In this document: positions 1 to 21,057 of the stretch, in pieces
Layout of the letters: each line of letters begins with the position of its first letter
How positions within the stretch are numbered: the stretch's first letter is position 1
Assembly (NCBI GenBank): GCA_965216565.1
Contig: OZ244170.1
Coordinates: 3,200,001 to 3,264,000, forward strand
Source of the DNA: Bythopirellula sp.
GTDB lineage: Bacteria; Planctomycetota; Planctomycetia; Pirellulales; Lacipirellulaceae
Length of the DNA stretch: 64,000 bases
Direction: 5' to 3'
Translations under genes and position numbers: made by a program
Notes under the pieces: model-generated
Database searches by the model: none
Told to the model about the DNA's origin: nothing
Seen by the model: the letters and a program-made list of their open reading frames with translations, nothing else

Positions 1-2
1 AA

Positions 3-3000
3 GGAGACGCTAGCGTTGGAGGTGATAAGGTAGCCCAATCCAAGTTTAGTGAAATCTCCCTGTACGATGTTCCGACTGGCTACGACGGGACTTTCCAGAT
101 TCCGACCAATGCTACTGAAATAGTTTTTGATAGTTTTACAACACCCGATGGGATCGACATCAAGTCGCTAGACATTCCCAACTATCAGGTTACAGAAAAT
201 ACAGTCTTAGAATTTGACTTTCGTGGCTTAGCACCTGGACCGGGTTCTTCGCACTCTATAGGCGTTGGAGCGACTATAGATTCCGAATTTGAGACAATAT
301 ATACATTAGATCTACCCAGCATTGATGGTAGTTCAAGCCAGACTCAGACAGTCAACCTAGGAACAGAACTCGAAATTCCGAACGGTTCATTCTTAGATAT
401 CAGCCATCTTGTCTTTACAAACATCGGTAGTACGGGTGACCCTGGACCAGCACAACCCACTACCAGTTACTTCAGTAATATTTCGCTATATGAAGCTCCA
501 CTCGGCACAGCCACAATCCAATCGAATAATCCACACAACAGGATCAAACTCACAGGGTCAGTATCAAAGTCCCTAGATATCACGGATCACGACATCACTG
601 AGAGTACTGTCCTGAGATTTGATTTCAAGAGCAACACCGAAGGTGCGCTCCATCTACTAGGTTGGGATACCAACAACACTTTTCAACAAGGATATCCTGA
701 CGCTGACGTCTTCGCCCTCTACGGCGATGACGTAGTTGGAACGCCTGCATACGATGGGACAGGTTGGGAACCGATAGCGATTCACCTTTACGGGGAGGAC
801 CCGTCTTCTCTCGGGAAAATCATCTCCCACCTCTTCTTCACTATGGACGGTGGTGCTGCCGGGTTAACAGCCGATAGTTTCTTCAGAAATATTCGCTTTG
901 AAGAGCTAGAAGAGATTGATTTAGATGGCTCGAAACAGGTAAATCCAAACGGCTCTACTCACGAACTTCAACTGACCGGAACCACCGCAGAAACATTGGT
1001 CGTCCCGGGTGGTTACACGATTACGCCCCATACGGTACTGCAGTTCGAATTCAGCAGCAACAGCCAAGGAGAGATGCATAGGATCGGTTGGGATACAAAC
1101 GGAACTTATTCTGAGGCTACTGATTCGCCCCGCCTCTATCCCGTATTCGGCAACCAAGCTTCAAGTTTGTACCCAGGCCTCAATGGAACCGCCTACAACT
1201 TCTATGACAGTATTGGCACCGATACGATTCAAATTCCAATCGGAAGCATTGTGTTCGATGGTGAGCCTAATCCGGTGGATCAAGTCATTTCTCGACTCAT
1301 ATTTACTGTTGAAGGAAACTCACTAGGGAGCAGTGCTCAGAGCGTCTTCAAGAACGTTAGCTTGACCGAAACTAGTCCCGCTGGTGACTTCTTCGTAGAT
1401 GGTGCGGGTATTCATCTGTTGGGAACTGCTTCAAAATCAGTTGCAGGTACAGGAGTGGGGACTCACACGATTCGAGAAGACTCCTGGCTACTGTTTGATT
1501 TCAGCAGTACCCAACAGGGTGCTTTGCACCAAATCGGCTGGGAATTTGGGGATGCCACGTACGGGCAGAATCCGTCTGATGAGCAACTGTATTCAATCTA
1601 CGGCACCTCAGCCAATAGTGGCGGGCTCTATAGTCGTTACAATCCTGGTCCTTCCAATCCTGGCGAAGTTCAAACAATCGCCATTCCTATCGGTCGGATC
1701 CTTGTCAACGGCAACGAGTCTCCGGACGGGAAAAAGCTCAATCGCCTTGTTTTTCGCAGCGTTGAGGGCGATGAAGGAATCGCGACTGAGAGTGTCTTTA
1801 ACAATGTAAGACTGTGGCGGCCAAGCAGCAGTGCAACTATTCATGATTACCCTTGGTTCAGCCTTGAGTTAAATGGTAACTCTGCGAAGACAATCCCTAT
1901 CGGTCACTACAATATAAGTGACAATACGCATCTATTCGTTGACCTCAACGGAGATGTTGAGGGGCTCCACCATGCAATAGGAGTTGATACAGACTCCACC
2001 TACGATGGAATTGAGGCACTTTTCCAGTTAAATGGGATTCCAGACGGCCGCTTCATTCAGATCAATCCCTCTGGCTTCTTCCCCTCCGATATACCACTGG
2101 GCAATCTCATCAATGGTCCAAATGCGGTTAACAATATCGTCTTTTTGAACAAGAGTGGTCCCTCGTCAGAAGACGCAAGAAGTGTCTTTAACGAAGTAAA
2201 GCTCTATGAAAAAATCGGCCCCACCGGCGCGCTATGGAGTAAAAGACTCTCGGTACCCGAGCACAGCCTCTCGGACATCAGCTTTCAGATTGATGGTTCA
2301 GGGGACAAACGTACAAGTCGACTCTACATCGACGGGGTGGGACAGTCCGCACCCTCGCAAAGCATTTGGGTCAGTGCAGGAGATAAGGCCTCGATCAAGG
2401 TAACCAACACCGTGCCGACGGCGTTCGGAATTGGCCAGGATTTCACCAAGACCTACACGCAAAACTACGACGAAGTAATCTCGCTAGGTCTTGATGCCAA
2501 TCAGTTCTCTCGCGACGCCCTGGTAGCTAAGCAGGCCGATTTGCTCGCGGCCTTGCAGAATAACACGGACTTGGCTCACTATCTCAATGACATCGACGAG
2601 CTTCTTTCGCACACAGTCGCCAAGTATTGGTCGGATTTTAATCGCGACAATGCGGCGATTAATCAGATCACGAACACCCTGGGCATTCAAACTCGGGTTG
2701 GCTCTGGCATTGCCAAAGCCAAGAAGAATCTTCTCGTAGACGCGCAGACTGGCGACTTCATCATTGAGCATCTGCCCTACCAAATCGCCCCCGAAGGGAT
2801 GGGCGTCGACCTGCCGAATGGTGTGCACTTTAGTTTGAATCGCTCGATTGGCTCCCTCGCCTCCGAAGCTTTCCAGCTTGTGGGATACAACGCTTCAGCA
2901 CTAGAACATAATATCGTGGAGTCGGAGATTAATAGTGCCAGTGTCTCTACCATACAAGGGCTGCGAAATGCGTACCTTCAAGAATTTGGAGTGGACGATC

Positions 3001-6000
3001 AACACAACTTGATTACGGATGACTCGATACTCGTCTTTGACCGCTTATCCACAGGTGAAGTCCTCTATCGGGGTGAATGGCACAAGGACAGCAGTTTCCC
3101 TAACCAAAGTGTGACAGTTAGTGATCTGGCAAATCTTGAGAGTTATCTAGTCCACCATCGACCGAAATCTGGTGGCTCCAATGAATTTGCAGGTTCGGTA
3201 TGGGCTAACCTGAACGATACAGAGGTTGACGGTGGGATTCGCATCCTAGTGCCAAAAGGCAAAAGCAAGGTCGACCATTGGGTAGGTAGTGTCTATCTGA
3301 GAGAAACTGCGGAATCTGGAACGTACGCTATCGTGAAAGAAGGGGGCGAGATTGCCAATGGCGGGTTTAGTGGTGATGTTTTTAAGACAGTCAACACCCA
3401 GTTGCCGCCCGTCGACTTCAAGTTCCAAACCTTTGCCGGCGACCCGGTCAATATTGCCAATGGCAGTATGTTTCGCGACGAAGTGGATATCGTCTATCCC
3501 AACCTCGGCGTGCCACTCAACTTCGCACGGCATTATGTCTCCAACTCTACAGACGATATTGGCTTGGGTGTTGGCTGGACGCATTCCTTTGGCGACATGC
3601 TGGTACTCGATCCAGAAGACACTTCAACCGGTGATCTGGTTTGGATCACTCCTTCCGGACAGCGGCACAAATTCGTGCCCAACGGTCCCAACTTTGAAGT
3701 TCCATCTGCCCTACATGGCGAATTCATCGATACCGGCACGCTCTACGTCTACAAAGACAAGAGTGGCATGGAGTATCACTTCGAGCAGAAGTCGATCACC
3801 GAGACAAGCTTAAACTCGTTGCAGGTCGTTGGACGCCTCGTGAAACAGATCGACAACATCGGCAACGGAGTGGAGATCGTCTACGTCAACGACTCAACAC
3901 GTCAGATTGGCAGCGTTCGTGATGTACACAACTTTCTCCGACGTCTCGAGATCGAATATGCCACAGACGACCGAATCAGCGCCGTTCATAAGGTCGACTC
4001 CGGATTGATCGGCACCTGGAATTTCACCTCTGAGGAAATCAACGGCACCCAAGCCTCTTCCGATTTCCGACTGACAAAAGTAGAAGCACCACAAGTGAAC
4101 ACGATCGACTCGCAGGGAGCCTCGATCCTTGCCAGTCCAACAGTTCACTACGACTACTACACAACAGGCCCTAGCGTAGGCCTGATCGAAACCATCACCG
4201 AAGCCGATGGCGAAACACACGATTACGAATACTACCCCAATGGCCGCGTATTCCGCGTGAACGACGCCGACGGGGGTGTCGAAAGTTACACCTACAATTT
4301 GTTTAGAAACGTCACCGAATTCACGAATCCCAATGGCAATACAGAGATCTATATTCACCAGGACAATGGTCTGCTAGAGAAACAGATTCACGAAGACCGT
4401 ACAAGGATGGTGCTTACGTGGGGTGAACAGGGAACTGATGCTGAGTACCTGATGAGCTCCAGCACCGATGAAATCGGAGCTACCGAGACTTTCACTTATT
4501 ACGACTCCGGTGATTTCCGCCGCGAACTTCAGCAGTCGACCTCCAAACATTTTCAAAATGCCGATGGCACACCCGTTGATAGCGATGACGTATTCACAAC
4601 CGATTTCACCTACGTCCAACCGCTCGACCGCCAACACATGTTCTTATTGGGACAAACGATTATCGATGCTGGCGACGAGAACATCACTACATCCTTCACA
4701 TACGACAATCTAGGTCGACTAGAAACAACGACCGACGCCCTCGGGAACGTCACCCTTCGTGAATACTACGCAGACGACATTAATCCGACCGATGGATTAC
4801 TCAAATCGGAGACAAGCGCCCGCGGAAATGACTCGGCTGATACGAGTGCTGTGAACGCTGAATATGTGCGGTGGCACGAGCTCAGCTCAAGTTATCAAGT
4901 CAACTCCGACACCCTCTCTGTGCGTTTATCAATGACCAATGACCTTGACGACAACGGCAAGGTCGCTATCGCCGATGCTATTCGACTGGAGCGGATAGAC
5001 GGAGACTTCCCCTATAGCCGCGTCATTGATAACGACGACAATGGCTTGGACCTGGATGGATTCAATGTCACCGGTTCCCTTGGTCCCGATTACTTTTACT
5101 CAACTGGCAATACCTTGGCAGGCATTGAAGGGGACGATACAGGGCTCAAGTCACTCGGGACCAAAGCGACGTGGACTTTCACGAATTTGCAGCCTGGACA
5201 CTACCGCGTACTTACCACCTGGGGAGTTGGAGGCAATCGTTGGCATACTGTTCCCTTTGACATCGTCGACGGCAACGACTTCACCGATTCGTCACGACTC
5301 ACCGTAGACGTCGATCAAACGCTGCATCCCGATGATGTCGCACCTCGGTTCATCACCACCTTCAGTTACGATGCCGCAGGTAATCTCACCCAAGCCAGCA
5401 GAGACGGTCAGCCGACGACCGTCAACGAATACCACCACACGGGTGGCATACTACGCACTACGAGTCCCCCGGATGCTGCGGGGCAGATTGTCGTCAGCGA
5501 AAACAGCTACGACACCCTGGGCCGACTGACCGACACTGAGACGTACCCTGCGAACGATCCCGAGGCGGCACTCGTCAGAAGTTTCGAATACGACGCCGTG
5601 GGGCGGGTGCGGTTTTCGACCGACGAACTGGGACGCATCACCACGCTTGCCTATGACGCACGAGGCAACTTGATCGAACAAATTTCCCCAGACGGTACCT
5701 CGATAGCGTTCGAATACGACGCCAACAGCAATCTCGTCCGCCAGATCGATGAACTGGGGCGAGAGACTCGGTCGAAGTTCGACAGTCGCGACCGATTGAT
5801 CAATACGATCTTCGCCGACGGTGCCAGCGAACATATCCGTTACACCGGCACGGGACAAGTGGCCGGCACAACTGATGCGCTGGACAAAGAAACAGTGTTC
5901 CTTTACGACGCGATCGGTCGGCTTCTCACCACCACAAATGCACACAACTACTCTTTCAGCAATGAGTTTGACAAACTCGGTCGGCTAGTTGCTACTACCG

Positions 6001-9000
6001 ACTACGAAGGCAACCGCACAGAGTTCAATTACGACTCATTGGGTCGGGTTATTAAATCACGCACACTGCCTGCGAACTCCGCGGAACCACTTCTCGCGCT
6101 GACTACCTTTGACTACGACGCCGAAGGTAATGTTATCCGTCAGGCCAGCTACGATACGGTGAACTTTGGGGTAGCCAATTCTATCGACGACCCGAGATCC
6201 CTGATCACCCCTGCAGCGATCGCTGCCAATTCGATTCAACTGATTGAGACCCAGTACGACGTCTTCAATCGACCCATCGAAGTAATCGCCGCCAGTGGTT
6301 CTATCAACCAAGAAGCGAGTAGCAACGTGTACGATCACACAGGACGTGTGGTCTATTCCTACGATGAATTGGGCCGAGTTAGTGAGTTGCGTTACGACCA
6401 ATATGGCCGCCTGCTAGAAACCGTGGCTCCTGACCCGGACGGAACTGGATCGCAGAGTTCACCGATTACCCGTTTCGAATACGATGCAGTGGGCAATCAA
6501 ACCGCGATCATCGACCCCAACGGCAATCGCACCGTGCTCCAATACGACGTCTTCAATCGCGTTGTCAATACAATCGATGCGTTAGGTGGCAAGACGCAAA
6601 CTCTCTATGATACTGCGGGGCAACTTGTAGCCACGGTCGATGCACTGGGCCGAGCTACTTACTCAGTCTTTGACAAACGAGGGAGACTTACAAAAACTCG
6701 GTCGGCCGATCCGGACGGCACCGGGCCTCTGCTCCCTAGCGAGTCGCAATTCGAATACGACGGCGCCGGCAATCTCCTCCGCCAGATCGACCCGCGCGGT
6801 TATGAGACGCATTACGAGTATGACGATCTCCATCGGCTTATAAAAGAGACACGCTCTTACGAGACGATCGTTGACAGTTCCAATTCAGAACATTTCTCAC
6901 TAATCAGAGACAACGGCAGCGCACCGGTCACGACAGGTTATGGCGGGAATGCCGAACTCGTTCAACACGACGACAACCAGCAGAATGCAAACCTACAAAC
7001 TGCCATCGCCGAGTGGAGATTTGAGACACTGCCTGCTGGCAAATATCGCATTCTAGCCACCTGGCCTTCGAGCCCTGGTGGCACCAATGTGCTGACGGTG
7101 CAAACGAATTTCAATGAAGCAGGGTTTACAGCTATTGCAGGAGAATCGTGGGATCAAAGCTCACCGCCCGACGACGTACAACGCACGCTCGATGGAGTGA
7201 CCACCGACTGGGCGATACTAGCAGAAGACATTGAACTCAGTGCGGCCAACAACACTCTTAGACTTCGCCTCCGCTCACAAGCAGGCGAAGACCTACTTGC
7301 CGATGCTATCCGTGTCGAGCGTATCGATACCCGCGAGTATGCCTATGACGACAACGACAACCTCACATCGGAAACCGATACTCTGGGTCGAATAACTTCC
7401 TACACATACGACGAGCTCGATCGAATCAAGACAGTCACCCTGCCCGATCCAGACGGCCCCGCGGGCCTTAGTTCTCCTCAAACAACTACCAACTACGATG
7501 GCTACGGCAACGTGACTGAGACGGTCGAATTTCGCGGTGGCGACAACCGCAAGACCCAGTGGACCTACGACACCCGGAATCGAGTGCTAAGCGAGACGCT
7601 CGACGTCGACGGTGACGCGGAAGTCGCCACCGAATTTACCTACGACGCAGCCGGCAACCTCATCGAGCAGATCGAAGCAGTCGGGGAGGTCAACGCCCGC
7701 ACCGAATACTTCTATGACAATCTCAACCGGCTCCAGGAACAAGTACGCTATCGCTCCGCAGGCGATTTCTACGGTGTCACCACCTTCTATAGCTACGATG
7801 CCAATGGCAATCTCACAGAGTCCGAAGACGAGTATTTCGACCAAAACAATCCGCTAAACTACTTTAAACGTAGAGTCAACTTTACCTACGACGCGCTCAA
7901 TCGAGAGACCAGTACAACCAGACATAACTTACTGCAGTCTGTTAGCCAATACGACGCGGTAGGAAATGTGATTTCGAACACAGACGGCCTAAGACGTACG
8001 ACCACTTTCGCGTACGACCACCTCAATCGCCTTGTCTCCGTCGCCGGTCCCGACCCGGACGGCAACCTTGGCTCGCTCGAAGCTTCCGTCACTACCAGCA
8101 CCTACGACCTATCAGGAAACCTCACCAGCCAAACCAACGGTGAGAACGAAACAGATCCCTTCTTCTACGATCGCAATGGCCGTCTGCTCTCGTCCACAGA
8201 TGGCTTGGGGCATACGGCGCACTTCACTTATGACAGTGAAGGCAATCAGATCGCGTACACCGATCCTACTGGCAACGCAACCACCTACGAGTATGACGCG
8301 CTAAATCGACTCACCAGCGAATCAATCACCCTCGACAGTAATCCTGCAAGCCGCGGTTACGCTTATAGCGATGAAGGTAACTTGGACTCAATCATTGACC
8401 GGAATGGACGGACGCGAACGTTCTACTACGACGGCTTGGATCGTCTCACTGGTGAGTTTTGGTACGACCAGCCCGGTGGTTCGTTGGTCCAAGGCCTTTC
8501 CTGGTCCTACGACAGTTTGGGACGTCTTGAGGTCGACCGAGACATCCATTATGCCTCTGGAGCTTCGCAAGTTAACAACTACGAGTACGATGATCTTGGG
8601 CGAGTCACCGAACATCGCAACTACGATACGTTGCTTGGCTTTTCCTCCGATGCCCCGCGGATTGTGCAGCGGTATCAATATGATTTGATTACCAATAACA
8701 CCATCAGTACCGTCCACTCGCAGCATCTACTGGACAGCCAGGATATCGAGCGGCATCGCGGCACAAGCACGGTCACGTTCGATAGGCAAGGTCGTGTTAC
8801 CAAAATCACCGACGATGCCGACACATCTCGTGGCATCGATGCCAAGCTTTTCGACTTCCACAACGACGCCGCCAACCAAATGACTGGCGTCACCCGCACG
8901 GCCGACGGGAATTCGGTCTTCGACACACTCTACGGATACGACAATGCCGGTCGAGCAGTGAACATCGCCCACCAGCAGGCGGTCGGCCCTCAACTCTCGG

Positions 9001-11222
9001 CATTCAGTTCGTATCAATACCAGTATGACCGCGCTCATCGAATTACTGACCAATCTAAATCGCTTGATACATCGGTTGCCGCACTCTCGCAGGCCACTGC
9101 CAACAATGCGGAAGCCTTTAATTTTGACCAAGCCGGTCAGCTTACCGCCGACGACGCCGGCAGCTACACCTACGACGACAACGGCAATCGCACCGATAGT
9201 GGGTTCGGCGTCGGCGAGCATAATCGGCTCACCGAGGATGCTGATTTCACCTATCTCTACGACGACGAGGGGAATCTCATCCGCCGAACCGAGAAGGTTG
9301 GCGGGCCACTGGGTGGACAAGTTACTGAGTACAGCTGGGACCACCGCAACCGCCTTGTGCAAGTGGTCCACTACGACGCGGCTGGCAATACGCCAATCTC
9401 TGGCACGATCGACTACCGCTACAATGCCGCCGACCAACTCGTCTGGCGACAGGAGACCACTGGTGGCACGCCCAAGACGGCTAGGCACTATGTCTTCTCC
9501 GGCGACCATCGAGTGCTGGACATTGCCGACACCGGAGTCGTACGGCACCGTTTTCTCTGGGGACCTGGGGGCGATCAGCTCTTGCTTGACGAAGTCTACG
9601 GAGGTAGTGGCATTCAAGTTACCGAGGCGCTTTGGGCGGCCACCGACCACCTGGGTAGTGTTGGCCAACTCGTTGAGCCTGATGGCACTATCTACGAGCA
9701 TCGCGAGTACGACTCCTTCGGCGACATCGAACAGGCGTTCGACGAACTAGGCAATGCCAAAGCCACCGGCAGCCTTCGCAGTCACGTTGCGCACGCTGGT
9801 AGTCTCTGGGATGACGACGCCGGTCTCTACAACAAGCGTGCCCGCTGGTACGACCCCAACACGGGCCGCTTTGTCGGCGAAGACCCCGCCGAAGACGGTA
9901 GCAACTGGTACCAATACGCCGGAGGCGACCCCATCAACTTCCGCGACCCCACCGGCCTAACCCCGGCGGGCAACCCGCTCAATGGTGTCAATGGCGGCTT
10001 TAGCGGTAACGTGCTCCGTGAGGAGAATACACTACTTCGCAATGTTGCAAGTCGTCCCGTTACTGCAGGATTAAGCTTCTCACAAATAGCAAGTTCAGGC
10101 CCCGTTAACAATTCTTTCCGAAATATCCAAGACGCTTTCTTCCAGCATGAATTCTCTACCTTAGCAACAAGCAAACTTAGCTCAGTCGGAATTGACTCAA
10201 CTTCCCAATTCACCGTCAATGCCTCCTTAGACCGCATTGTAGCAGCTCAGAGACCTTTCATTGCCGTAGGTCCGGCCAGGGAACAGTTTGATGACCCGAT
10301 TCTCCGGGGACTAGCAAACCCGCGGGTTCAGGGGGGGCTACAAGTTGTACAAGGAGTTAGTGAGGGATTGATAGCCGGTGGATTAGCACTCGCACCCGAG
10401 CCCACTCTAACGACAAAAGTAGCTGCAGGGGTACTGGGAGCTAAATCCTTTGACAGTATCCAGGCTGGTTTCAGGCAATTGATTTTAGGCGAGCAAGTCG
10501 ACAGCTTCACGCGCACTGCGACCACTAACGTGACCACCGGCTTGGGTGCACCAGATGATCTAGTATCTTTTTCAAACTTTCTAGTTGATGCTGGTCCCAG
10601 CGTTGTTGGCGGAGCTGCACTCTCCCGGACATTGGCCCGGGGTTCGACAGGACTTGTAGACGATGCCGCAAGACTTAACAGCAATGTACTTCATACCAGC
10701 ACGCTCTCGACTCACTCTTTTGATGATCTACTAGCCGCACAACGGCTTACCAATCAGATCGAAGTCGCAGCTAGCAATCAGATCATTAGCCAGACGAGTA
10801 CGGCATCGCTGAGAGTAAAGTTGAGCCCTATTCTCGAGACCCAGCGTGACTTATCAATTCTAGCAAATCGTCAGTCAAATGTTGTTAATCGATTTCTTCA
10901 ATCGAGTGATAGCCGTGTTGCAATATCGTTTCGTCAGGCCCAAACTGAAAACCCACCATTTGCAAATCTTATCCAAGGAAGGGTGCTTGACCGTCGGTTA
11001 AATTCGTTGTTAAAACGTCAGCCTCTGGGGAACAATGTGAGACTAGATCAAACAGTCCCTAACTCCGGAAGTAACTTGCGGCCTGATGTTTTTTTTCCTA
11101 GCCTCGACAACAAAAGTGTTATATTCGATTTTGGCGGTGTTTCGAAAATCAGGGCCATCCAGAAATTTGACGGACTCGCTGATGAAATAATACCGATAGT
11201 ACCCTTAGAGAGATTCAAATGA
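3..11222 (+). CDS. Giant RHS/YD-repeat polymorphic toxin protein (5'-partial, >3700 aa in window)
   Basis: The frame of ORF 843..11222 has no stop back to position 3 (GDASVGGDKVAQSKFSEISLYD...), so the start lies upstream of the window. Features: DUF6531-like 'GDPVNIANGSMF...LNFARHY' at ~3440; many YD repeats (YDAAGN, YDALNRL); RHS-core end 'GLYNKRARWYDPNTGRF...NWYQYAGGDPINFRDPTGL' at ~9820-9959; ~420-aa C-terminal extension. Confidence 0.93.
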   Translation, partial: GDASVGGDKVAQSKFSEISLYDVPTGYDGTFQIPTNATEIVFDSFTTPDGIDIKSLDIPNYQVTENTVLEFDFRGLAPGPGSSHSIGVGATIDSEFETIYTLDLPSIDGSSSQTQTVNLGTELEIPNGSFLDISHLVFTNIGSTGDPGPAQPTTSYFSNISLYEAPLGTATIQSNNPHNRIKLTGSVSKSLDITDHDITESTVLRFDFKSNTEGALHLLGWDTNNTFQQGYPDADVFALYGDDVVGTPAYDGTGWEPIAIHLYGEDPSSLGKIISHLFFTMDGGAAGLTADSFFRNIRFEELEEIDLDGSKQVNPNGSTHELQLTGTTAETLVVPGGYTITPHTVLQFEFSSNSQGEMHRIGWDTNGTYSEATDSPRLYPVFGNQASSLYPGLNGTAYNFYDSIGTDTIQIPIGSIVFDGEPNPVDQVISRLIFTVEGNSLGSSAQSVFKNVSLTETSPAGDFFVDGAGIHLLGTASKSVAGTGVGTHTIREDSWLLFDFSSTQQGALHQIGWEFGDATYGQNPSDEQLYSIYGTSANSGGLYSRYNPGPSNPGEVQTIAIPIGRILVNGNESPDGKKLNRLVFRSVEGDEGIATESVFNNVRLWRPSSSATIHDYPWFSLELNGNSAKTIPIGHYNISDNTHLFVDLNGDVEGLHHAIGVDTDSTYDGIEALFQLNGIPDGRFIQINPSGFFPSDIPLGNLINGPNAVNNIVFLNKSGPSSEDARSVFNEVKLYEKIGPTGALWSKRLSVPEHSLSDISFQIDGSGDKRTSRLYIDGVGQSAPSQSIWVSAGDKASIKVTNTVPTAFGIGQDFTKTYTQNYDEVISLGLDANQFSRDALVAKQADLLAALQNNTDLAHYLNDIDELLSHTVAKYWSDFNRDNAAINQITNTLGIQTRVGSGIAKAKKNLLVDAQTGDFIIEHLPYQIAPEGMGVDLPNGVHFSLNRSIGSLASEAFQLVGYNASALEHNIVESEINSASVSTIQGLRNAYLQEFGVDDQHNLITDDSILVFDRLSTGEVLYRGEWHKDSSFPNQSVTVSDLANLESYLVHHRPKSGGSNEFAGSVWANLNDTEVDGGIRILVPKGKSKVDHWVGSVYLRETAESGTYAIVKEGGEIANGGFSGDVFKTVNTQLPPVDFKFQTFAGDPVNIANGSMFRDEVDIVYPNLGVPLNFARHYVSNSTDDIGLGVGWTHSFGDMLVLDPEDTSTGDLVWITPSGQRHKFVPNGPNFEVPSALHGEFIDTGTLYVYKDKSGMEYHFEQKSITETSLNSLQVVGRLVKQIDNIGNGVEIVYVNDSTRQIGSVRDVHNFLRRLEIEYATDDRISAVHKVDSGLIGTWNFTSEEINGTQASSDFRLTKVEAPQVNTIDSQGASILASPTVHYDYYTTGPSVGLIETITEADGETHDYEYYPNGRVFRVNDADGGVESYTYNLFRNVTEFTNPNGNTEIYIHQDNGLLEKQIHEDRTRMVLTWGEQGTDAEYLMSSSTDEIGATETFTYYDSGDFRRELQQSTSKHFQNADGTPVDSDDVFTTDFTYVQPLDRQHMFLLGQTIIDAGDENITTSFTYDNLGRLETTTDALGNVTLREYYADDINPTDGLLKSETSARGNDSADTSAVNAEYVRWHELSSSYQVNSDTLSVRLSMTNDLDDNGKVAIADAIRLERIDGDFPYSRVIDNDDNGLDLDGFNVTGSLGPDYFYSTGNTLAGIEGDDTGLKSLGTKATWTFTNLQPGHYRVLTTWGVGGNRWHTVPFDIVDGNDFTDSSRLTVDVDQTLHPDDVAPRFITTFSYDAAGNLTQASRDGQPTTVNEYHHTGGILRTTSPPDAAGQIVVSENSYDTLGRLTDTETYPANDPEAALVRSFEYDAVGRVRFSTDELGRITTLAYDARGNLIEQISPDGTSIAFEYDANSNLVRQIDELGRETRSKFDSRDRLINTIFADGASEHIRYTGTGQVAGTTDALDKETVFLYDAIGRLLTTTNAHNYSFSNEFDKLGRLVATTDYEGNRTEFNYDSLGRVIKSRTLPANSAEPLLALTTFDYDAEGNVIRQASYDTVNFGVANSIDDPRSLITPAAIAANSIQLIETQYDVFNRPIEVIAASGSINQEASSNVYDHTGRVVYSYDELGRVSELRYDQYGRLLETVAPDPDGTGSQSSPITRFEYDAVGNQTAIIDPNGNRTVLQYDVFNRVVNTIDALGGKTQTLYDTAGQLVATVDALGRATYSVFDKRGRLTKTRSADPDGTGPLLPSESQFEYDGAGNLLRQIDPRGYETHYEYDDLHRLIKETRSYETIVDSSNSEHFSLIRDNGSAPVTTGYGGNAELVQHDDNQQNANLQTAIAEWRFETLPAGKYRILATWPSSPGGTNVLTVQTNFNEAGFTAIAGESWDQSSPPDDVQRTLDGVTTDWAILAEDIELSAANNTLRLRLRSQAGEDLLADAIRVERIDTREYAYDDNDNLTSETDTLGRITSYTYDELDRIKTVTLPDPDGPAGLSSPQTTTNYDGYGNVTETVEFRGGDNRKTQWTYDTRNRVLSETLDVDGDAEVATEFTYDAAGNLIEQIEAVGEVNARTEYFYDNLNRLQEQVRYRSAGDFYGVTTFYSYDANGNLTESEDEYFDQNNPLNYFKRRVNFTYDALNRETSTTRHNLLQSVSQYDAVGNVISNTDGLRRTTTFAYDHLNRLVSVAGPDPDGNLGSLEASVTTSTYDLSGNLTSQTNGENETDPFFYDRNGRLLSSTDGLGHTAHFTYDSEGNQIAYTDPTGNATTYEYDALNRLTSESITLDSNPASRGYAYSDEGNLDSIIDRNGRTRTFYYDGLDRLTGEFWYDQPGGSLVQGLSWSYDSLGRLEVDRDIHYASGASQVNNYEYDDLGRVTEHRNYDTLLGFSSDAPRIVQRYQYDLITNNTISTVHSQHLLDSQDIERHRGTSTVTFDRQGRVTKITDDADTSRGIDAKLFDFHNDAANQMTGVTRTADGNSVFDTLYGYDNAGRAVNIAHQQAVGPQLSAFSSYQYQYDRAHRITDQSKSLDTSVAALSQATANNAEAFNFDQAGQLTADDAGSYTYDDNGNRTDSGFGVGEHNRLTEDADFTYLYDDEGNLIRRTEKVGGPLGGQVTEYSWDHRNRLVQVVHYDAAGNTPISGTIDYRYNAADQLVWRQETTGGTPKTARHYVFSGDHRVLDIADTGVVRHRFLWGPGGDQLLLDEVYGGSGIQVTEALWAATDHLGSVGQLVEPDGTIYEHREYDSFGDIEQAFDELGNAKATGSLRSHVAHAGSLWDDDAGLYNKRARWYDPNTGRFVGEDPAEDGSNWYQYAGGDPINFRDPTGLTPAGNPLNGVNGGFSGNVLREENTLLRNVASRPVTAGLSFSQIASSGPVNNSFRNIQDAFFQHEFSTLATSKLSSVGIDSTSQFTVNASLDRIVAAQRPFIAVGPAREQFDDPILRGLANPRVQGGLQVVQGVSEGLIAGGLALAPEPTLTTKVAAGVLGAKSFDSIQAGFRQLILGEQVDSFTRTATTNVTTGLGAPDDLVSFSNFLVDAGPSVVGGAALSRTLARGSTGLVDDAARLNSNVLHTSTLSTHSFDDLLAAQRLTNQIEVAASNQIISQTSTASLRVKLSPILETQRDLSILANRQSNVVNRFLQSSDSRVAISFRQAQTENPPFANLIQGRVLDRRLNSLLKRQPLGNNVRLDQTVPNSGSNLRPDVFFPSLDNKSVIFDFGGVSKIRAIQKFDGLADEIIPIVPLERFK

Positions 11223-11842
11223 ATAAAGCTGATTTCATTAAGCGATGGTCAGATCCGACGTATCTATCATCTGTCAAAAACAATTTATTTGAAATCACAG
11301 ACAATCGTTTCTTGGAAGGGCCAGCTGAACTTAGGGGGCTCATCGTTGGATTGAACGGAGCTCTTGAAGAATACGAATCCTTGTCATTTGAACACGCAAC
11401 AATACGACTTATTGACTTCACCTATTCCAAGTTCTCTTGCAGCTTTAGTCATAGCAGACTAGAAGAGTTGGACTTCTCAGATTGTCTTTTTGATACATGT
11501 AACATGATTGGTACTCATTCTTCCAAATGTCATTTCCGTTCTACGAGAATCAGTGCCCCGACAATGAACGATGCTGTTTTTGAGAATTGTGACTTTTCAA
11601 ACTCTACTCTCAAGGGACGAGGATTTTATGAATACGGAGGACGGCGGGCGATTTTTAGTAAGTGCAATTTTCGAGGTGCAAAGATAAAATCTCTTGAATT
11701 TCGGGCCTCCAAATTCATTCAATGTCTATTCGAGGAGACTATCTTTGAAAAATGTGATTTACGAGGAGCTAAGTTTGAAGGCAACATTGTAAATGCTGAT
11801 CAACTCGCACGCTGTAACATAGATAGCACCATATTCTCGTAA
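11219..11842 (+). CDS. Pentapeptide-repeat protein, candidate immunity protein of the RHS toxin
   Basis: Pentapeptide-like periodicity (LDFSDCLFDTC, AVFENCDFSNSTL, AIFSKCNFRGAKI, TIFEKCDLRGAKF). Its ATG overlaps the RHS stop (ATGA). AT-rich like the toxin tip. Confidence 0.85.
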   Translation: MNKADFIKRWSDPTYLSSVKNNLFEITDNRFLEGPAELRGLIVGLNGALEEYESLSFEHATIRLIDFTYSKFSCSFSHSRLEELDFSDCLFDTCNMIGTHSSKCHFRSTRISAPTMNDAVFENCDFSNSTLKGRGFYEYGGRRAIFSKCNFRGAKIKSLEFRASKFIQCLFEETIFEKCDLRGAKFEGNIVNADQLARCNIDSTIFS

Positions 11843-12380
11843 TACGAATTATGCAGAAGAGCTTGTCTAGGTATGTTTAATTCTCGACTGATCTTACGAT
11901 TGCCAGGCTTTCGGATGATGGGGAAGTCAAGAGTTACCAGAAAGCATGTTTTGCACCTCTAAGTTTCGTTATCCCCCCAGGCCACCTCTGCCGGCTGTGC
12001 CACCACTGACTGATGGCAATGTGGCCACCATTGCTGTTCGCTTTACTATGCAGAATTTCGATAATTGAGTTTGCAGATTCTTGCGCCCGTTCTTTAATAA
12101 CTAGACTCTATTTATTGGTAGTTAAGCGTTAGTTCTCTCGTCGAGAAATATTGCACGCTCGGTTCTCTTTTTGGCCTGCAAAAGTCCCTGGCATTTTGCC
12201 CCCGGTGACTGGCATTGTTCCCTTGCATCGCAGTGTCTGGGCAAACTAGCACTGTGCAAAATGTTTCTTGCCATCGGGCCCGACGGCGCTTGCCGGAGAC
12301 CAAATTCTTGGCAAACTGCGATAGATCGGCATTCTAAGCCGCACCAAAGTTGGGAGTTTTTCGGCGAAGTCCTCATAACT

Positions 12381-12737
12381 TCACGCCCGTTTCTTTTTTC
12401 CCGAGGCCTTTGCGGTCGAGTCGGCTTCGGCAGAATCTTTGACGCGCAGCAGTGTGTTGGCCCAGTAGGCTTCGTATTTGCTGATCCAGCGCTCAATGAT
12501 TTGCCGCAGCGGTGCCGCGTTGAGCGAGTTGATTCGCAACCGACCCTCGCTGCGAGTATTCACGAGTCCCGCCTCGCGCAGTACGTCGAGGTGCTTCATC
12601 ACGCCGAAGCGCGACAGGTGGGGGAATTGCTCGACGACCTCGGTCGTTTGTCGCGGACCATCGCGGAGTAGGTCCAGAATCTCTCGGCGGGTGGGGTCGG
12701 CCAGCGCCTTCCAAACCTGATCATTCGGCTCGCTCAC
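12381..12737 (-). CDS. ArsR/SmtB-family transcriptional regulator
   Basis: 'WKALADPTRREILDLL...SRFGVMKHLDVLREAGLV...EGR' winged-helix signature. Confidence 0.92.
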   Translation of the reverse strand: MSEPNDQVWKALADPTRREILDLLRDGPRQTTEVVEQFPHLSRFGVMKHLDVLREAGLVNTRSEGRLRINSLNAAPLRQIIERWISKYEAYWANTLLRVKDSAEADSTAKASGKKKRA

Positions 12738-14331: not shown

Positions 14332-15405
14332 TCACTCGAAACCGAATTCTTCTAGTGTGATTTCGCCCTCGGTTGACGTAACGGGGGTGAATTTCACTCG
14401 CGTATGCTGGAGGAAGTCGTCGTTGATTGATTCGAACCGGTCCGCAGCGCGCTGCTCGCCGACCTGGAACAACTCAGGGATGTGTTCGACCTCGTCGAGG
14501 CCCCATTTATCCATCATGCGGAAGTTGATATGTCGATAACGATCGCCCAAGAAGTACTTTAAAGGTAAGTGAATTCCTTGGACCTGAGATGTTCCCATGA
14601 CATCGGCGACTCGTGGTGCCCAATACAGGAGCCCTGCATCGGCGCCGGGGGGCGACAAAGAAAACTGTGCTCTGCCTGTGCCGATGGAGAGCAGATGGAT
14701 ATTGTCAATGAAATACGAATCATCCGTGGATTCGTTCTTTTCATTTTGGAAGTTGTGAATACGGATAGCTTCGGCCAACGCAAGCACGCTGGGATCGTTC
14801 GCCCACATCGCACCGTCGACATACGCATGCTCACCAATTTGATGATGGGGGAAATAAGTGGGGGCTGCTGTTGCAGCGATTGTAACGTCGGTGACCTTAA
14901 TATGCCGATCGTGATATGCCTTGGGCAAATGGCAAGAACGGAACACATGCGGTTCGCCGAGTGTTAGATTGACTGCCGGGATGGCGAGACGCGTGTAGCA
15001 GACTGAATCCAATCTGGTTTCGCCGAACCCCTCATCGAAAGCTTCTCGTAACGCAATCGGGCAGAATCGGGCACGAAATGCCGCGTCGAGTCCCCCACCG
15101 GTCCGCTTGCGAAACACCCAATTCGCAGGCGGAAACAATGCCCGCGTGACACCACGCGCTTTGTATCGTGGCCGAGGCGTAAAGATCTTCGCGCCATACT
15201 GCACATAAAAGTCGTGCATTCGCTCAGCGGAAAGGCCCATTGCCAAACCGGCAGCAATTATTCCACCTGTGGACGTGCCGGCAATCAGATCAAATGCTTC
15301 GGCTATATTGCGGCCTGCCTTCTGCTCTAGCTCTTTCAGAAACGAGGTGACAAACGCCCCACGAATTCCACCTCCAGCCAGGGAGAGAATCTGAAAGCGA
15401 GACAT
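14332..15405 (-). CDS. Patatin-like phospholipase (CapV-like)
   Basis: Oxyanion 'LSLAGGGIRG', nucleophile 'FDLIAGTSTGG', 'AAPTYFP', catalytic Asp 'YVDGAMWANDP'. Confidence 0.9.
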   Translation of the reverse strand: MSRFQILSLAGGGIRGAFVTSFLKELEQKAGRNIAEAFDLIAGTSTGGIIAAGLAMGLSAERMHDFYVQYGAKIFTPRPRYKARGVTRALFPPANWVFRKRTGGGLDAAFRARFCPIALREAFDEGFGETRLDSVCYTRLAIPAVNLTLGEPHVFRSCHLPKAYHDRHIKVTDVTIAATAAPTYFPHHQIGEHAYVDGAMWANDPSVLALAEAIRIHNFQNEKNESTDDSYFIDNIHLLSIGTGRAQFSLSPPGADAGLLYWAPRVADVMGTSQVQGIHLPLKYFLGDRYRHINFRMMDKWGLDEVEHIPELFQVGEQRAADRFESINDDFLQHTRVKFTPVTSTEGEITLEEFGFE

Positions 15406-17598: not shown

Positions 17599-19347
17599 AT
17601 GAAATTTGGAAAACACTTCTCTAGCCGATCCACAAAGAATCAACCCTTGGCACGCACCGCACTTGGGCGCCGCGCTCGAATGGAGACGTTAGAGGCACGG
17701 CGTGTGTTAACTAGCTACTTCATCGATGGAAATCACGAGTCAATTCAAGATGCAATTGATGATGCCGCCAACGACGGCAAAGAAGACACCATCTTCTTGA
17801 TGAGTGATACTTACTTCCAGAACATTCATATCCAAGATAACGATCCGCTCAAGATCATCGGTTTAGGGAACGTTGTATTAAGACCCGGCAACGGAAGTAA
17901 TGGCGACACCAGTACCATCACCGCTGGCAGCGACGACATACTATCAATCTACAACAGCGATCATGTCACACTTAAGAACTTGAAGTTCAAATACGCAGTT
18001 GACGATGCGATCGACGTCCAGGACACGTATAAGATTTCGCTCTACGACATTAGAGCCGAAGACAGCAATGATGATGGTCTCGATGCAGAGAATGTAGACT
18101 ACGTCAAAATTTACGACAGCAAGTTCAATTACAATGACGACAACGGAATTGAACTAATCAATGTTGGTTATGCTTACCTAAAAGACGTCCAAGCCAAACA
18201 CAATGGCGATTCAAATGACGATTCGGAAGTTGACCAAGTTCTTGAGGGAAGTGAAGAATCTAATGATGGCAATGGTATCTACTACGTAAACGGCGGTAGT
18301 AGTGAGCCACAAGAGGCAATTGTCAGCGCATTCTCAAACGGCTCCCCAGACGGCCACTTGGAGATCTACAGTGGCGATTACTCCAAGAATTACCGCGATG
18401 GAATTCACACTGATGGTGTGAAAACGGTTGAAATCGACACGATCTACGCAAACGATAACGGCCGAGATGGCGTCGATGTGGAAGATTATTCTCAAGACGC
18501 TGAAGAGCTTACCATCCACTACGCTGCCACAGATTCTAATGGCGACGACGGTGTTGAGTCGGACGCCGACGATGTTTCGATCACAACATTCCGCGCTTTG
18601 CATAATGATGGAGCGGGGCTGGATCTTGACTCAGGCTACGAAGCCTATATCCACAACGCCGACTTCTCACACAACGGTGGTGCTGGGCTCGATATTGATT
18701 ATGTCGAAGAAGTTGACATCGACTATATTCAGGCGAACTATAACGGCACGGACACGAACAACACCGGCTTGGACGTAGACTATGTCGACGAATTGGACAT
18801 CCACAATAGCCAATTCATTGGCAACTATGGCGACGGCATCAATGTCTACATGAATGAGTACGGTGAGACGGACATCACCTGGGTCGACTCTTCATACAAT
18901 ACCGGCGATGGAATTCACCTGCGGTATGGCTCATCCGATCTGGACGGAGTCAACACCTCCAACAATGAACAGAATGGAATCTACAGCTACAACCTGTATG
19001 ATCTCGACATTCACAATACGAGTTCTACGTACAACGATTACAACGGCCTGTTGATCGAGGGTAGCAGCAGCAACGGCCAAGATCCCGAAGGAAGCAATGG
19101 CAACGGGCACGGCTCCTTCTACGGGACAGATGTTCGCATCGAGTGGAGCGAGTTTGTCCACAACTACGAAGACGGCATCCATGCAGACCACGCGGGCAAG
19201 ATCGTACTAGATCGCATCCGCTCTTCTTACAACGGCGACGATGGTTTTGACTCCATCAATCCCGAGATTCCTGCCCATGTAATCGATTCGATTTTTGAAC
19301 ATAACTACGATGAGGATTTCAACGAAGACTTTTTCTACGGAACTTAA
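17599..19347 (+). CDS. Secreted right-handed parallel beta-helix repeat protein (paralog 1)
   Basis: Basic N-terminus with 'RMETLEARRVL' planctomycete export motif; 'SIQDAIDDA' cap; ~22-aa 'N..DGI.' repeats. GGGGAG RBS. Confidence 0.85.
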   Translation: MKFGKHFSSRSTKNQPLARTALGRRARMETLEARRVLTSYFIDGNHESIQDAIDDAANDGKEDTIFLMSDTYFQNIHIQDNDPLKIIGLGNVVLRPGNGSNGDTSTITAGSDDILSIYNSDHVTLKNLKFKYAVDDAIDVQDTYKISLYDIRAEDSNDDGLDAENVDYVKIYDSKFNYNDDNGIELINVGYAYLKDVQAKHNGDSNDDSEVDQVLEGSEESNDGNGIYYVNGGSSEPQEAIVSAFSNGSPDGHLEIYSGDYSKNYRDGIHTDGVKTVEIDTIYANDNGRDGVDVEDYSQDAEELTIHYAATDSNGDDGVESDADDVSITTFRALHNDGAGLDLDSGYEAYIHNADFSHNGGAGLDIDYVEEVDIDYIQANYNGTDTNNTGLDVDYVDELDIHNSQFIGNYGDGINVYMNEYGETDITWVDSSYNTGDGIHLRYGSSDLDGVNTSNNEQNGIYSYNLYDLDIHNTSSTYNDYNGLLIEGSSSNGQDPEGSNGNGHGSFYGTDVRIEWSEFVHNYEDGIHADHAGKIVLDRIRSSYNGDDGFDSINPEIPAHVIDSIFEHNYDEDFNEDFFYGT

Positions 19348-19434
19348 TCCTAAGTTCATCGCACTATGGGCTGGGTAGCCAACACTGCCTTGCTACAAAC
19401 TGGACTCTTTAATAACAACTGTGGGGAGATCATC

Positions 19435-21057
19435 ATGAAGTTCCAGAATCCTTTCAACAAGCAAAACCATCGCAGGAATCGACAGGCGAACCGCCCCGTC
19501 AGCGGACGGCGCACTCGAATGGAGACTCTTGAAGATCGTCGTGTGCTGGCCAACTACTTTGTGTTTGGCAATGGGGACTCGATTCAAGATGCAGTCAACG
19601 ACGCTGCAAATGACGGCGTGGACGATTACATTTTCTTAAAGAGTGATACTTATTACCAAGATATTAACATCAACGACAGCGATTCACTAACGATCGTCGG
19701 CTTAGGCAATGTTGTTTTGCGTCCCGGCAACAATGAGACAATGACGATCAACAACAGTGAGGATGTCACTCTTAAGAACCTCACCTTCAGAGACTCTGAT
19801 GGTGACGATGCACTTCTCGTCAATAACACGTACCGTCTTACGTTATATGATGTCCAAATCTTTGACAGCGACTTCGATGGCCTAGAAGCAAATAGTGTCA
19901 ACACCATCGATATCCACAACAGCCGTTTCAACAGGAACGGCGACAATGGCATCGAGCTGAATAATGTTGGCAATGTCTATCTTCGCGACGTTCAGGCCAG
20001 CTATAACGGCTTCAACAACGACGAAGACGGCCGCAACAATGGGGTTGCCTACATCAATGGGAGGGGCTCTGAATCCCAAAGCAACGGCTTCGGAACTTAT
20101 GCTGGTCATCTGGAAATCTACAGTGGAGATTACTCCAAGAACGGCACTGATGGCATCTATACCGAAGGCGTGGAGAAAGTAGATATCGATACGATTTACG
20201 CTAACGATAATTACGAAGATGGCGTCGACGTGGAAGATAGCTCTTACAACTATGCCGAAGAGCTAACAATTCATTACGCCGCTACCGATGCCAATGGTGA
20301 TGATGGCGTGGAATCAAATGCTGACTACGTTTCCATCGATAACTTCCGAGCATTGCACAATGACGAAGCTGGGTTGGACTTAGATGGCGGGGAAGAGGCT
20401 TACATTCATAACGCCGACTTCTCATACAATGGCGGTGCAGGACTCGACATCGACTATGTAGAAGTCGTTGAAATCGATTACATCCAGGCCATCGCAAATG
20501 GTGCCAACACCGAAAACACAGGCCTGGACGTCGACTATGTTGATGATTTGAAGATCAACGATAGCCAGTTCATTGCCAACTACGGCGATGGAATAGACGT
20601 CTACATGAACGATTACGGCGAAACTGAGATTTCTTGGGTCGATTCCTCCTACAACACTGGCAATGGAATCGATCTGCGTTATGGATCAGCTACATTGGAT
20701 GGCGTTAATACTTCCCATAATGAACGTAACGGTATTCGTTCCTATTACTTGCGAGACCTTTCGGTCAATAATACAAGTTCCACCTACAACAGCTACAATG
20801 GGTTGCTGATCGAAGGCGGAAACGGCAATGGTTCCGATTACCGTACCGATGCTAATATTTCTTGGAGCGAGTTCGCCTTGAACTATGAAGACGGTATCCA
20901 TGCGGATTACGCTGGCGAAATTATCCTGGACCGCGTCAGCGCTACGTATAACGGCGACGACGGCTTCCAGTCCTTTAACCCTGACGAGTCCGCAGAAGTG
21001 ATTGATTCGATCTTCGAGAATAACTTTGATGAAGATTTCGAAGAGATCTTTTTCTAG
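19435..21057 (+). CDS. Secreted right-handed parallel beta-helix repeat protein (paralog 2)
   Basis: 'RMETLEDRRVL' motif and the same architecture as the upstream gene, with long near-identical blocks. GGGGAG RBS at 19423-19428 supports ATG 19435. Confidence 0.85.
   Translation: MKFQNPFNKQNHRRNRQANRPVSGRRTRMETLEDRRVLANYFVFGNGDSIQDAVNDAANDGVDDYIFLKSDTYYQDININDSDSLTIVGLGNVVLRPGNNETMTINNSEDVTLKNLTFRDSDGDDALLVNNTYRLTLYDVQIFDSDFDGLEANSVNTIDIHNSRFNRNGDNGIELNNVGNVYLRDVQASYNGFNNDEDGRNNGVAYINGRGSESQSNGFGTYAGHLEIYSGDYSKNGTDGIYTEGVEKVDIDTIYANDNYEDGVDVEDSSYNYAEELTIHYAATDANGDDGVESNADYVSIDNFRALHNDEAGLDLDGGEEAYIHNADFSYNGGAGLDIDYVEVVEIDYIQAIANGANTENTGLDVDYVDDLKINDSQFIANYGDGIDVYMNDYGETEISWVDSSYNTGNGIDLRYGSATLDGVNTSHNERNGIRSYYLRDLSVNNTSSTYNSYNGLLIEGGNGNGSDYRTDANISWSEFALNYEDGIHADYAGEIILDRVSATYNGDDGFQSFNPDESAEVIDSIFENNFDEDFEEIFF

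Follow-up and report, generated by a model that had tools for sequence, protein, structure and literature searches.

We describe an RHS toxin gene and the small gene that follows it in a 64,000-nucleotide (nt) stretch of Bythopirellula sp. DNA (Planctomycetota, Lacipirellulaceae; GenBank assembly GCA_965216565.1, contig OZ244170.1, positions 3,200,001 to 3,264,000 of the forward strand). We call this whole stretch the window, and unlabelled coordinates are positions within it. The gene entering the window at its 5' end is an RHS polymorphic toxin with a variable C-terminal tip, and the small gene lies directly 3' of it. Our best explanation is that the end of the toxin gene and the small gene form an acquired cassette, in which an uncatalogued tip, predicted to be a metal-dependent nuclease with a PD-(D/E)xK fold, is bound directly by a pentapeptide-repeat partner acting as its immunity protein; as a joint statement, acquisition included, we hold this to be moderately probable. 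The locus comprises:

1..11222, forward strand: 3' part of the RHS polymorphic-toxin gene (RHS_repeat and DUF6531 matches)
9744..9959, forward strand: Rhs_assc_core (TIGR03696) with DPTGL at its end (9945-9959), the border between conserved shell and variable tail
10269..10691, forward strand: glycine-rich pre-toxin module, tail residues ~105-245 (homologues bearing other tips)
10794..11219, forward strand: toxin tip domain, tail residues ~280-421, a predicted PD-(D/E)xK-like nuclease (homologues, AlphaFold2 model)
10977..11147, forward strand: candidate active-site residues, from conservation in 23 tips (G72-R73 10977-10982, D76 10989-10991, D95 11046-11048, R106-P107-D108 11079-11087, D122 11127-11129, K128 11145-11147)
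11219..11842, forward strand: pentapeptide-repeat partner, 207 amino acids (aa), likely cognate immunity (Pfam, AlphaFold2 model, adjacency)
11615..11647, forward strand: conserved loop GRGxxEYGGRR, partner residues 133-143, candidate contact element (20-sequence alignment)
9960..12100, no strand: island of low G+C content (GC) covering the tail, the partner gene and ~250 nt past the partner (GC profile)

The RHS protein is 5174 aa long, with its ATG upstream of the window (G000:C1:3195698), and the open frame, 5207 aa in all, continues beyond the window's 5' end. A Pfam scan found the multiple RHS/YD repeats of the shell (PF05593, RHS_repeat, E 4.9e-116, 17 stretches) as well as DUF6531. The shell ends with TIGR03696 (68 bits against a cut-off of 32.5), whose match stops exactly at DPTGL, also the last residue supplied, and the tail beyond it measures 421 aa up to the TGA at 11220-11222. 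A first-pass annotation, made from the letters alone, had ended the RHS core at this DPTGL and described a tail of about 420 aa, closing in a compact 'GRVLD...RPD...IFD' domain and followed by a gene that overlaps the stop and consists mostly of pentapeptide repeats. These readings were borne out: the TIGR03696 match terminates at that site, the tail has the expected length and position, and GRVLD (10977-10991), RPD (11079-11087) and IFD (11121-11129) are conserved across 23 homologous tips, so that they are not a product of chance. Likewise, the ATG of the partner (11219-11221) overlaps the toxin's TGA by 4 nt (ATGA), and three Pfam pentapeptide models score above cut-off on its product.

An exhaustive HMMER search with the tail against 1.84 billion representatives (E up to 1e-3) returned 143 proteins including the self-match, 40 of them on the tip and 102 on the earlier tail. 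The 40 tip representatives match tail residues ~280-421, nearly all within 3 residues of their own C-terminus, a few short fragments excepted. Neither the tip nor the tail matched any family in the 2025 Pfam (E up to 0.1) or the 2026 NCBIfam, and no PADLOC family matched the tip or the partner. Three motifs, G-R-x-x-D, R-P-D and F-D-x-G-x-x-x-K, lie within the last ~140 aa. Numbered on a 152-aa piece (10764-11219), the residues F66, I70, G72, R73, D76, D95, R106, P107, D108, G124, K128 and A139 are invariant in the 23 aligned tips, and position 122 is an aspartate replaced by glutamate in a single sequence. The tips are basic, with an isoelectric point (pI) of 9.5-11.7 in 21 of 23.

The carriers of the tip are diverse. 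PT-HINT is present in 3 of the 23 aligned proteins and in P0025 and P0039, RHS in 2 of the 23 by PF03527 and in P0008 and P0032 by RHS repeats, and PAAR in 1 of the 23; Ig-like domains occur in P0032 and, together with PT-HINT, in P0025. A WXG or LXG front was found on no tip homologue among those scanned, and for 10 tip carriers looked up by cluster, the sole names obtained were 'hypothetical' and 'RHS repeat-associated'. Judged from these alignments and scans, the tip is a distinct polymorphic-toxin module, carried by several types of protein and represented by no Pfam or NCBIfam model.

The evidence that carries the pairing comes from related loci. These were fetched with a tip motif drawn from a 6-row alignment, a strict motif that leaves divergent tips unsampled, and comprise 5 species-representative genome loci and 14 metagenome loci. 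The genome loci are metagenome-assembled genomes from Planctomycetota, two Pirellulaceae, Acidobacteria and Thermoanaerobaculia. Using the partner profile, a partner homologue was found to begin no more than 20 nt past the tip end in 18 of 18 testable loci of the 19 fetched; the nineteenth (L009) was excluded from the count because its contig ends 38 nt after the tip. Three of the loci (L011, L012 and L014) are apparently one sequence from three assemblies, and the partner of L017 is cut by the contig end. Co-occurrence of homologous tips with pentapeptide genes was a check set beforehand, and no unrelated immunity family was seen in the partner's place. Furthermore, the partner follows the tip behind RHS, PT-HINT and short carriers alike. 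Thus, the gene follows the tip from carrier to carrier and from phylum to phylum, as a cognate immunity gene does, and from these neighbourhoods we regard the partner as the likely cognate immunity protein of the tip. The first-pass annotation had assigned this role to the gene on position alone; the adjacency is indeed conserved in all 18 loci, while direct binding is the part that adjacency can only suggest. A complex prediction of the tip (residues 20-152) with the partner scored 0.09 and 0.02 against a mark of 0.32, was run with no controls and counts as evidence neither way.

Two of these loci are also worth recording in their own right. At L020:1390-1765 the tip is broken into two frames and the partner is intact, and at L011:1824-2485 the partner is split over two frames; they could be decaying cassettes or assembly errors.

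The partner itself matches PF13576 (58.5 bits, cut-off 27, E 7.5e-16), PF13599 (57.4 bits, cut-off 38, E 1.5e-15) and PF00805 (49.7 bits, cut-off 20.2, E 2.5e-13), and its pentads keep one 5-residue register between residue ~61 and residue 207. Its AlphaFold2 model (predicted local distance difference test, pLDDT, 94.7; predicted template modelling score, pTM, 0.90) consists of two N-terminal helices (3-27) and a beta-helix (31-207), and Foldseek ranks AlbG first (2xt2_A, E 2.4e-8) among 46 matches at E 1e-3 or better. Next in the list come the clostridial 6fls, designed beta-solenoids, QnrB1 and MfpA (probability 1.00 each) and other pentapeptide proteins. On this model, the partner is a beta-helix of the right-handed quadrilateral type. 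A word-based homologue search gave 4 relatives, all unnamed. Membership in the Qnr or MfpA families was rejected, their NCBIfam models scoring 27.2 bits (cut-off 240) and 27.3 bits (cut-off 360), and so was HalA of the Hailong system (39 bits against a cut-off of 250).

An alignment of 20 partners (29-52% identity to P0002) shares W10, G40, the invariant R143, R162 and a loop, GRGxxEYGGRR. This loop (residues 133-143) interrupts the repeat pattern, with a local dip in model confidence and a strand spacing of 15 residues as against 10, and is a candidate for the contact with the toxin. AlbG reportedly has loop insertions too.

The tip was modelled with AlphaFold2 from a 23-row alignment (pLDDT 91.9, pTM 0.80). 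The model shows three helices followed by strand-strand-helix-strand, a topology that fits reading the core as alpha-beta-beta-beta-alpha-beta, with D108 of the RPD motif immediately preceding a strand, D122 within the strand after it and K128 where the helix that comes next begins. The Foldseek list for this model is weak and consists mostly of PD-(D/E)xK enzymes, among them Cas4, EcoRII, cap-snatching endonucleases, Bax1 and Can2. A Foldseek-independent structure search of 48,161 chains has PD-(D/E)xK enzymes in 11 of its 13 top rows, the best being Cas4 4r5q (Z 5.3, root-mean-square deviation 4.1, 111 aligned residues), OkrAI (5.1), PspGI (4.9) and BglII (4.8), and rescoring of the Foldseek list gave the best structural match of the tip, BamHI (Z 5.7, root-mean-square deviation 4.3, 115 aligned residues); by the tool's own note, values of Z below 8 can reflect merely a common arrangement. 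The named neighbours of the tip in a protein language model are Tox-REase-9 (0.92) and Tox-REase-7 (0.89).

Taking fold and neighbours together, we consider it reasonably probable that the tip is a non-canonical PD-(D/E)xK-like nuclease with the pattern D...D/E-x5-K. Since the only nucleases it matches are PD-(D/E)xK enzymes, and these weakly, the call stays a prediction. The 'nuclease-like' label given to the tip in the initial reading is accordingly plausible as regards its fold and structural neighbours, but the scores behind it are weak and cleavage is predicted only.

Several family assignments of the tip were tried. A similarity to Tox-REase-7 and -9 noticed by eye (GR..., [LI]P.SG, PD) was not significant in hhalign, and no match to the Tox-REase-2 to -10 Pfam families was found for the tail, for the tip or among the families of the 23 tip proteins. 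By these profile comparisons, the tip stands outside every described Tox-REase family. Sequence searches of the Protein Data Bank (PDB) with the tail and with the tip profile gave no meaningful match; the best one, to the CHD1 chromodomain (E 0.004), was discarded because it lies in the profile's N-terminal overhang.

The remaining 102 of the 142 non-self matches cover the tail before the tip, mostly residues 105-245, where a glycine-rich pre-toxin module with no strongly hydrophobic segment is located. Of 38 proteins with this module that were scanned, 13 contain a Pfam family, and the tips found beyond it elsewhere are RNAse_A_bac (3 proteins), XOO_2897 deaminase, WHH/Colicin-DNase, Ntox33, Tox-REase-7, ParB_N, NTP_transf_2 and T5orf172. 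The matches therefore suggest that the module is a shared shuttle, mostly for nucleic-acid-directed tips. DUF4225 was matched weakly on the module itself in 2 proteins, in one just over the Pfam cut-off and in the other under it. With ~100 representative relatives, many different tips and no solid Pfam model, the module may merit description as a trafficking domain.

The base composition of the locus sets tail and partner apart from their surroundings. GC is 0.633 at 9700-9999, falls to 0.473 at 10000-10299 and 0.39 at 11200-11949, and is back at 0.55-0.62 from ~12250, so that the cassette has ~40% GC between flanks of ~60%. Between the partner and a convergent ArsR-like open reading frame (ORF; 12381-12737, reverse strand) lie ~540 nt (11843-12380) with no convincing gene; the first half of this interval is still low in GC, which indicates that the acquired segment reaches past the partner's stop. 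The genome has no second copy or paralogue of tip or partner and hence no orphan-tip array. Of 401 Planctomycetota genomes sampled, this one alone matched the tip profile, and the partner profile had a single full-length match, again here (273 bits). It also scored 59-75 bits in 27 other genomes, on frames of 197-1879 aa and mostly over part of its length; these we read, from the scores and partial coverage, as probably generic pentapeptide proteins. A tblastn search of 72,556 plasmids with the tip gave no match, and around the cassette there were no meaningful repeats and, after it, no terminator-like site. We interpret tip and partner as a foreign-looking two-gene cassette that was probably acquired horizontally, this being one component of the joint explanation given at the outset.

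How might such a cassette work? Release of the tail at DPTGL is established for Rhs proteins in general, and by analogy the tail of this protein would be released after DPTGL following delivery. The glycine-rich module may then aid entry into the target cell, where D76, D95, D108 and D122 together with K128 would make up a site for metal and phosphate at which nucleic acid is cut. Protection of the producer would come from the translationally coupled beta-helix, which could bind and occlude the tip. The contact we favour would bring two elements of the partner, the GRGxxEYGGRR loop and a conserved face rich in arginine and lysine, to the acidic pocket of the tip, rather than presenting an acidic, DNA-like surface. 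In a more specific version, which would be a new mechanism for both families and which we put forward very tentatively, the arginine loop and basic stripe of the partner plug the acidic metal site of the tip or shield its nucleic-acid substrate. If true, this would link protection of the Qnr and AlbG type to contact-dependent protein toxins.

A number of observations weigh against a nuclease tip bound directly by its partner. The Foldseek search of the tip model against the PDB returned nothing at E 1e-3 or better, and none of the structural matches exceeds a Z of 5.7, all of them being weak. The motif departs from the canonical form, with the invariant K128 six residues past D/E122 instead of two and an invariant glycine at residue 124, and hhalign gave the tip a probability below 1% with both Tox-REase-7 (6 sequences) and Tox-REase-9 (3 sequences). 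As for the partner, its conserved basic face does not sit easily with a basic tip, except where the contacts are confined to the acidic pocket, and adjacency alone cannot separate direct binding of the toxin from protection of the toxin's target.

The weak structural scores, the lack of hhalign support and the displaced lysine are also what would be expected if the tip were some other enzyme, such as an ADP-ribosyltransferase, a small-molecule phosphodiesterase or an RNA-specific enzyme, whose likeness to restriction endonucleases came from a common alpha/beta arrangement; the immunity pairing would still hold. For Tse6, a possibly related toxin, a structurally similar toxin is predicted to be an ADP-ribosyltransferase and nuclease activity was assigned by default (10.64898/2026.07.13.738213; this preprint and the other papers cited here are quoted from the portions of their text available to us). 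However, two search methods agree on PD-(D/E)xK enzymes as the neighbour class of the tip, its invariant acidic residues sit where that fold has its metal ligands, and the shared pre-toxin module bears mostly tips that target nucleic acids. We regard a different enzymatic activity as unlikely, and continue to favour a predicted nuclease.

The first-pass annotation had proposed that the beta-helix neutralises a deoxyribonuclease (DNase) as a DNA mimic, matching B-form DNA in size, shape and charge and filling the substrate cleft. The partner does share the fold of MfpA, Qnr and AlbG, as the Foldseek matches indicate, and the tip is basic and nuclease-like; moreover, acidic, DNA-like immunity surfaces have been reported for the DNase toxin Rehh (10.64898/2026.09.22.753552). 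The charges of the partner family speak against it. The 20 partners have a net charge of -3 to +5 and a pI of 5.6-8.8. When the pentads were placed on four faces, using three registers that differ in loop extrusion (0, 5 or 10 residues), none of the faces proved acidic throughout the family; the mean charge of the most acidic one was -2, and no more than 7 of the 20 sequences were at -3 or below. One face is basic in every register (average +4 to +5), and the conserved charged positions are mostly basic, namely R9, R110, R134, R142, R143, K157, R162 and K185, acidic ones being few (E37, D92, D118 and E138). In addition, the model has no C-terminal dimerisation helix, unlike MfpA, which is described as dimerising through such helices (PMC8145042), and the scores with the Qnr and MfpA models are low. 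Read from sequence registers and not from a computed surface potential, the charge pattern thus argues against bulk electrostatic mimicry, and the proposal, which we consider improbable, was not upheld. A small local acidic patch on the partner would stay compatible with the charge data.

Alternatively, instead of binding the toxin, the partner could shield its cellular target, for example a topoisomerase or nucleic acid, in the manner of AlbG, McbG or Qnr, with the tip as the corresponding poison. AlbG, the self-resistance factor of a toxin producer, is the closest solved structure, followed by the gyrase-protecting Qnr and MfpA, and the conserved basic face could bind nucleic acid. On the other hand, Qnr and MfpA score only ~27 bits against NCBIfam cut-offs of 240-360, the partner family was found solely beside one tip family, and the tip combines a nuclease-like fold with an enzyme-like set of invariant residues (D, D, D, D/E and K); target protection is therefore quite unlikely in our judgement. 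We consider it very improbable that the partner is an accessory factor (a chaperone, adaptor or co-delivered protein) like the pentapeptide proteins that the literature mentions, along with DUF2169, as accessories of type VI secretion systems, because its gene goes with the tip and not with the carrier, occupies the immunity position and is translationally coupled, and because no PAAR or VgrG domain was seen on the window's RHS protein.

Beyond the cassette, some features of the RHS shell and of other genes in the window were noted. FG-GAP repeats are present in the N-terminal part of the RHS protein, and two similar segments are inserted among the RHS repeats, at ~5150-5320 (WTFTNLQPGHYRVLTTW...) and ~6850-7100 (WRFETLPAGKYRILATW...). 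Their Pfam matches, to Golvesin_C and GBD_IRG7_N, are weak and sub-cut-off; the segments may be carbohydrate-binding. The N-terminus of the RHS protein (L022:5698-5850) has a basic stretch and then RIESLEARQMLTA, and a like motif is found on 3 other large predicted secreted proteins, METLEARRVLTS, METLEDRRVLAN and FETLENRRLLAG (17599-19347, 19366-21057 and 28314-31802, respectively); it resembles a signal for export or sorting that is specific to the lineage. The ORFs at 17599-19347 and 19366-21057 (forward strand) are adjacent paralogues (582 and 563 aa) with a high content of D, N and G, and look like beta-helix repeat proteins. On the reverse strand, the translation of a 357-aa ORF (14332-15405) contains 'GGGIRG' and 'GTSTGG' motifs, which we take to be typical of patatin-like phospholipases.

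Among described systems, the closest is Tse6/Tsi6a of Stenotrophomonas rhizophila CFBP13503 (Taillefer et al., bioRxiv 10.64898/2026.07.13.738213). Tse6 is presented there as a rare Rhs-Ct of unknown function whose orthologues, reported from Actinomycetes and Planctomycetes, have PAAR, Rhs, HINT and Ig-like carriers; a Mycobacterium chelonae pair is also named. The immunity protein, Tsi6a, is similar to a protein that bears a pentapeptide-repeat annotation, and its interaction with Tse6 was predicted by AlphaFold3 only. A rare tip on these same carrier types, a pentapeptide-like immunity and an occurrence in Planctomycetes are shared with the cassette described here, although this is a likeness by description and not a proof of homology. 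Differences exist as well: the 5 genome loci of the tip include no genus named in the available text of the preprint, the hosts and carrier lengths of the tip relatives do not obviously include its organisms, and the tip homologues scanned have no WXG or LXG front. The phrase 'dna mimic' occurs 0 times in that text. Comparing by description only, we see identity of the two families as a possibility that deserves attention, but not one that we favour. The first-pass annotation had singled out the pair as a candidate for an undescribed system; this claim stands in so far as the tip and partner families are in no Pfam or NCBIfam library, and is weakened by the preprint.

The Tox-REase families (Zhang et al. 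2012, PMC3482391) are likewise C-terminal tips on RHS and HINT carriers, planctomycetes included. Tox-REase-7, with its GxxxE, IxD and ExK motifs, is similar in having a helix motif (GRxxD in our tip), a PD-type aspartate and the same order of acidic residue and lysine. In contrast, the tip has no Pfam match to Tox-REase-7 or -9, falls below the hhalign level given above and has its lysine displaced (D-x5-K). Its immunity differs too: for Tox-REase-7 the paper lists HEAT repeats, Imm23 and Imm54, whereas here it consists of pentapeptide repeats. The repeat-type immunities of that survey are HEAT, ankyrin and leucine-rich repeats, and 'pentapeptide' occurs 0 times in 300,000 of its 357,715 characters.

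As to the partner, AlbG, McbG, Qnr and MfpA have the same right-handed quadrilateral beta-helix, and AlbG is also a self-protection factor of a producer (PMC8145042). They differ in being dimers that guard gyrase from small-molecule or peptide poisons, and at least MfpA is described as having a DNA-like electrostatic surface (PMC8145042), whereas the partner is near neutral with a basic face. Compared with AlbG, Qnr and MfpA, it has an N-terminal helical cap, lacks a C-terminal helix and is tied to a protein toxin. The word 'immunity' is found 0 times in the accessible text of this 2021 pentapeptide review (PMC8145042).

Nuclease-type Rhs toxins with an adjoining pentapeptide gene have been noted before. 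The GH-E (His-Me finger) Rhs nucleases adjoin YjbI-like pentapeptide genes with no other immunity gene there, and in the part of the paper available the role of these genes is left unassigned and immunity is not proposed (Jablonska et al. 2017, PMC5714182). The fold of GH-E toxins is different, and the tip was rejected as a member because no histidine is among the invariant or near-invariant columns of the 23 tips. Rehh-RehhI is alike in being a formerly unrecognised DNase tip, with immunities proposed as imitators of the DNA backbone (Long et al., bioRxiv 10.64898/2026.09.22.753552). Rehh itself is a histidine-rich, divergent HNH enzyme, and the proteins conferring immunity to it (Imm22, SUKH, CdiI-like and Imm24) have acidic surfaces (10.64898/2026.09.22.753552); this HNH-like family was also discarded for the tip on account of the missing conserved histidine.

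Pentapeptide-type immunity beside Rhs tips has therefore been proposed before, for Tse6/Tsi6a in 2026, and the GH-E/YjbI neighbourhoods were noted in 2017. In the text available to a full-text literature search we found no paper testing a pentapeptide-repeat protein as a polymorphic-toxin immunity, and a biochemical test was likewise absent from the accessible portions of the Tse6/Tsi6a and GH-E papers. With earlier hints coming from neighbourhoods (2017) and structure prediction (2026), the conserved pairing described here is the strongest comparative evidence we found for pentapeptide beta-helices as immunity to protein toxins. Should the two proteins bind each other, the pentapeptide superfamily, which is large and for the most part lacks assigned functions, would gain a second clear role next to the protection of topoisomerases, and a compact nuclease-inhibitor pair would become available for study. 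Polymorphic toxins are a main source of new enzyme folds and inhibitors, and both families are newly defined, being absent from the 2025 Pfam and the 2026 NCBIfam. As a kind, the cassette is an ordinary one, in which an RHS toxin is followed by its immunity gene; the new parts are an uncatalogued tip, predicted to be a nuclease, and a dedicated family of pentapeptide partners.

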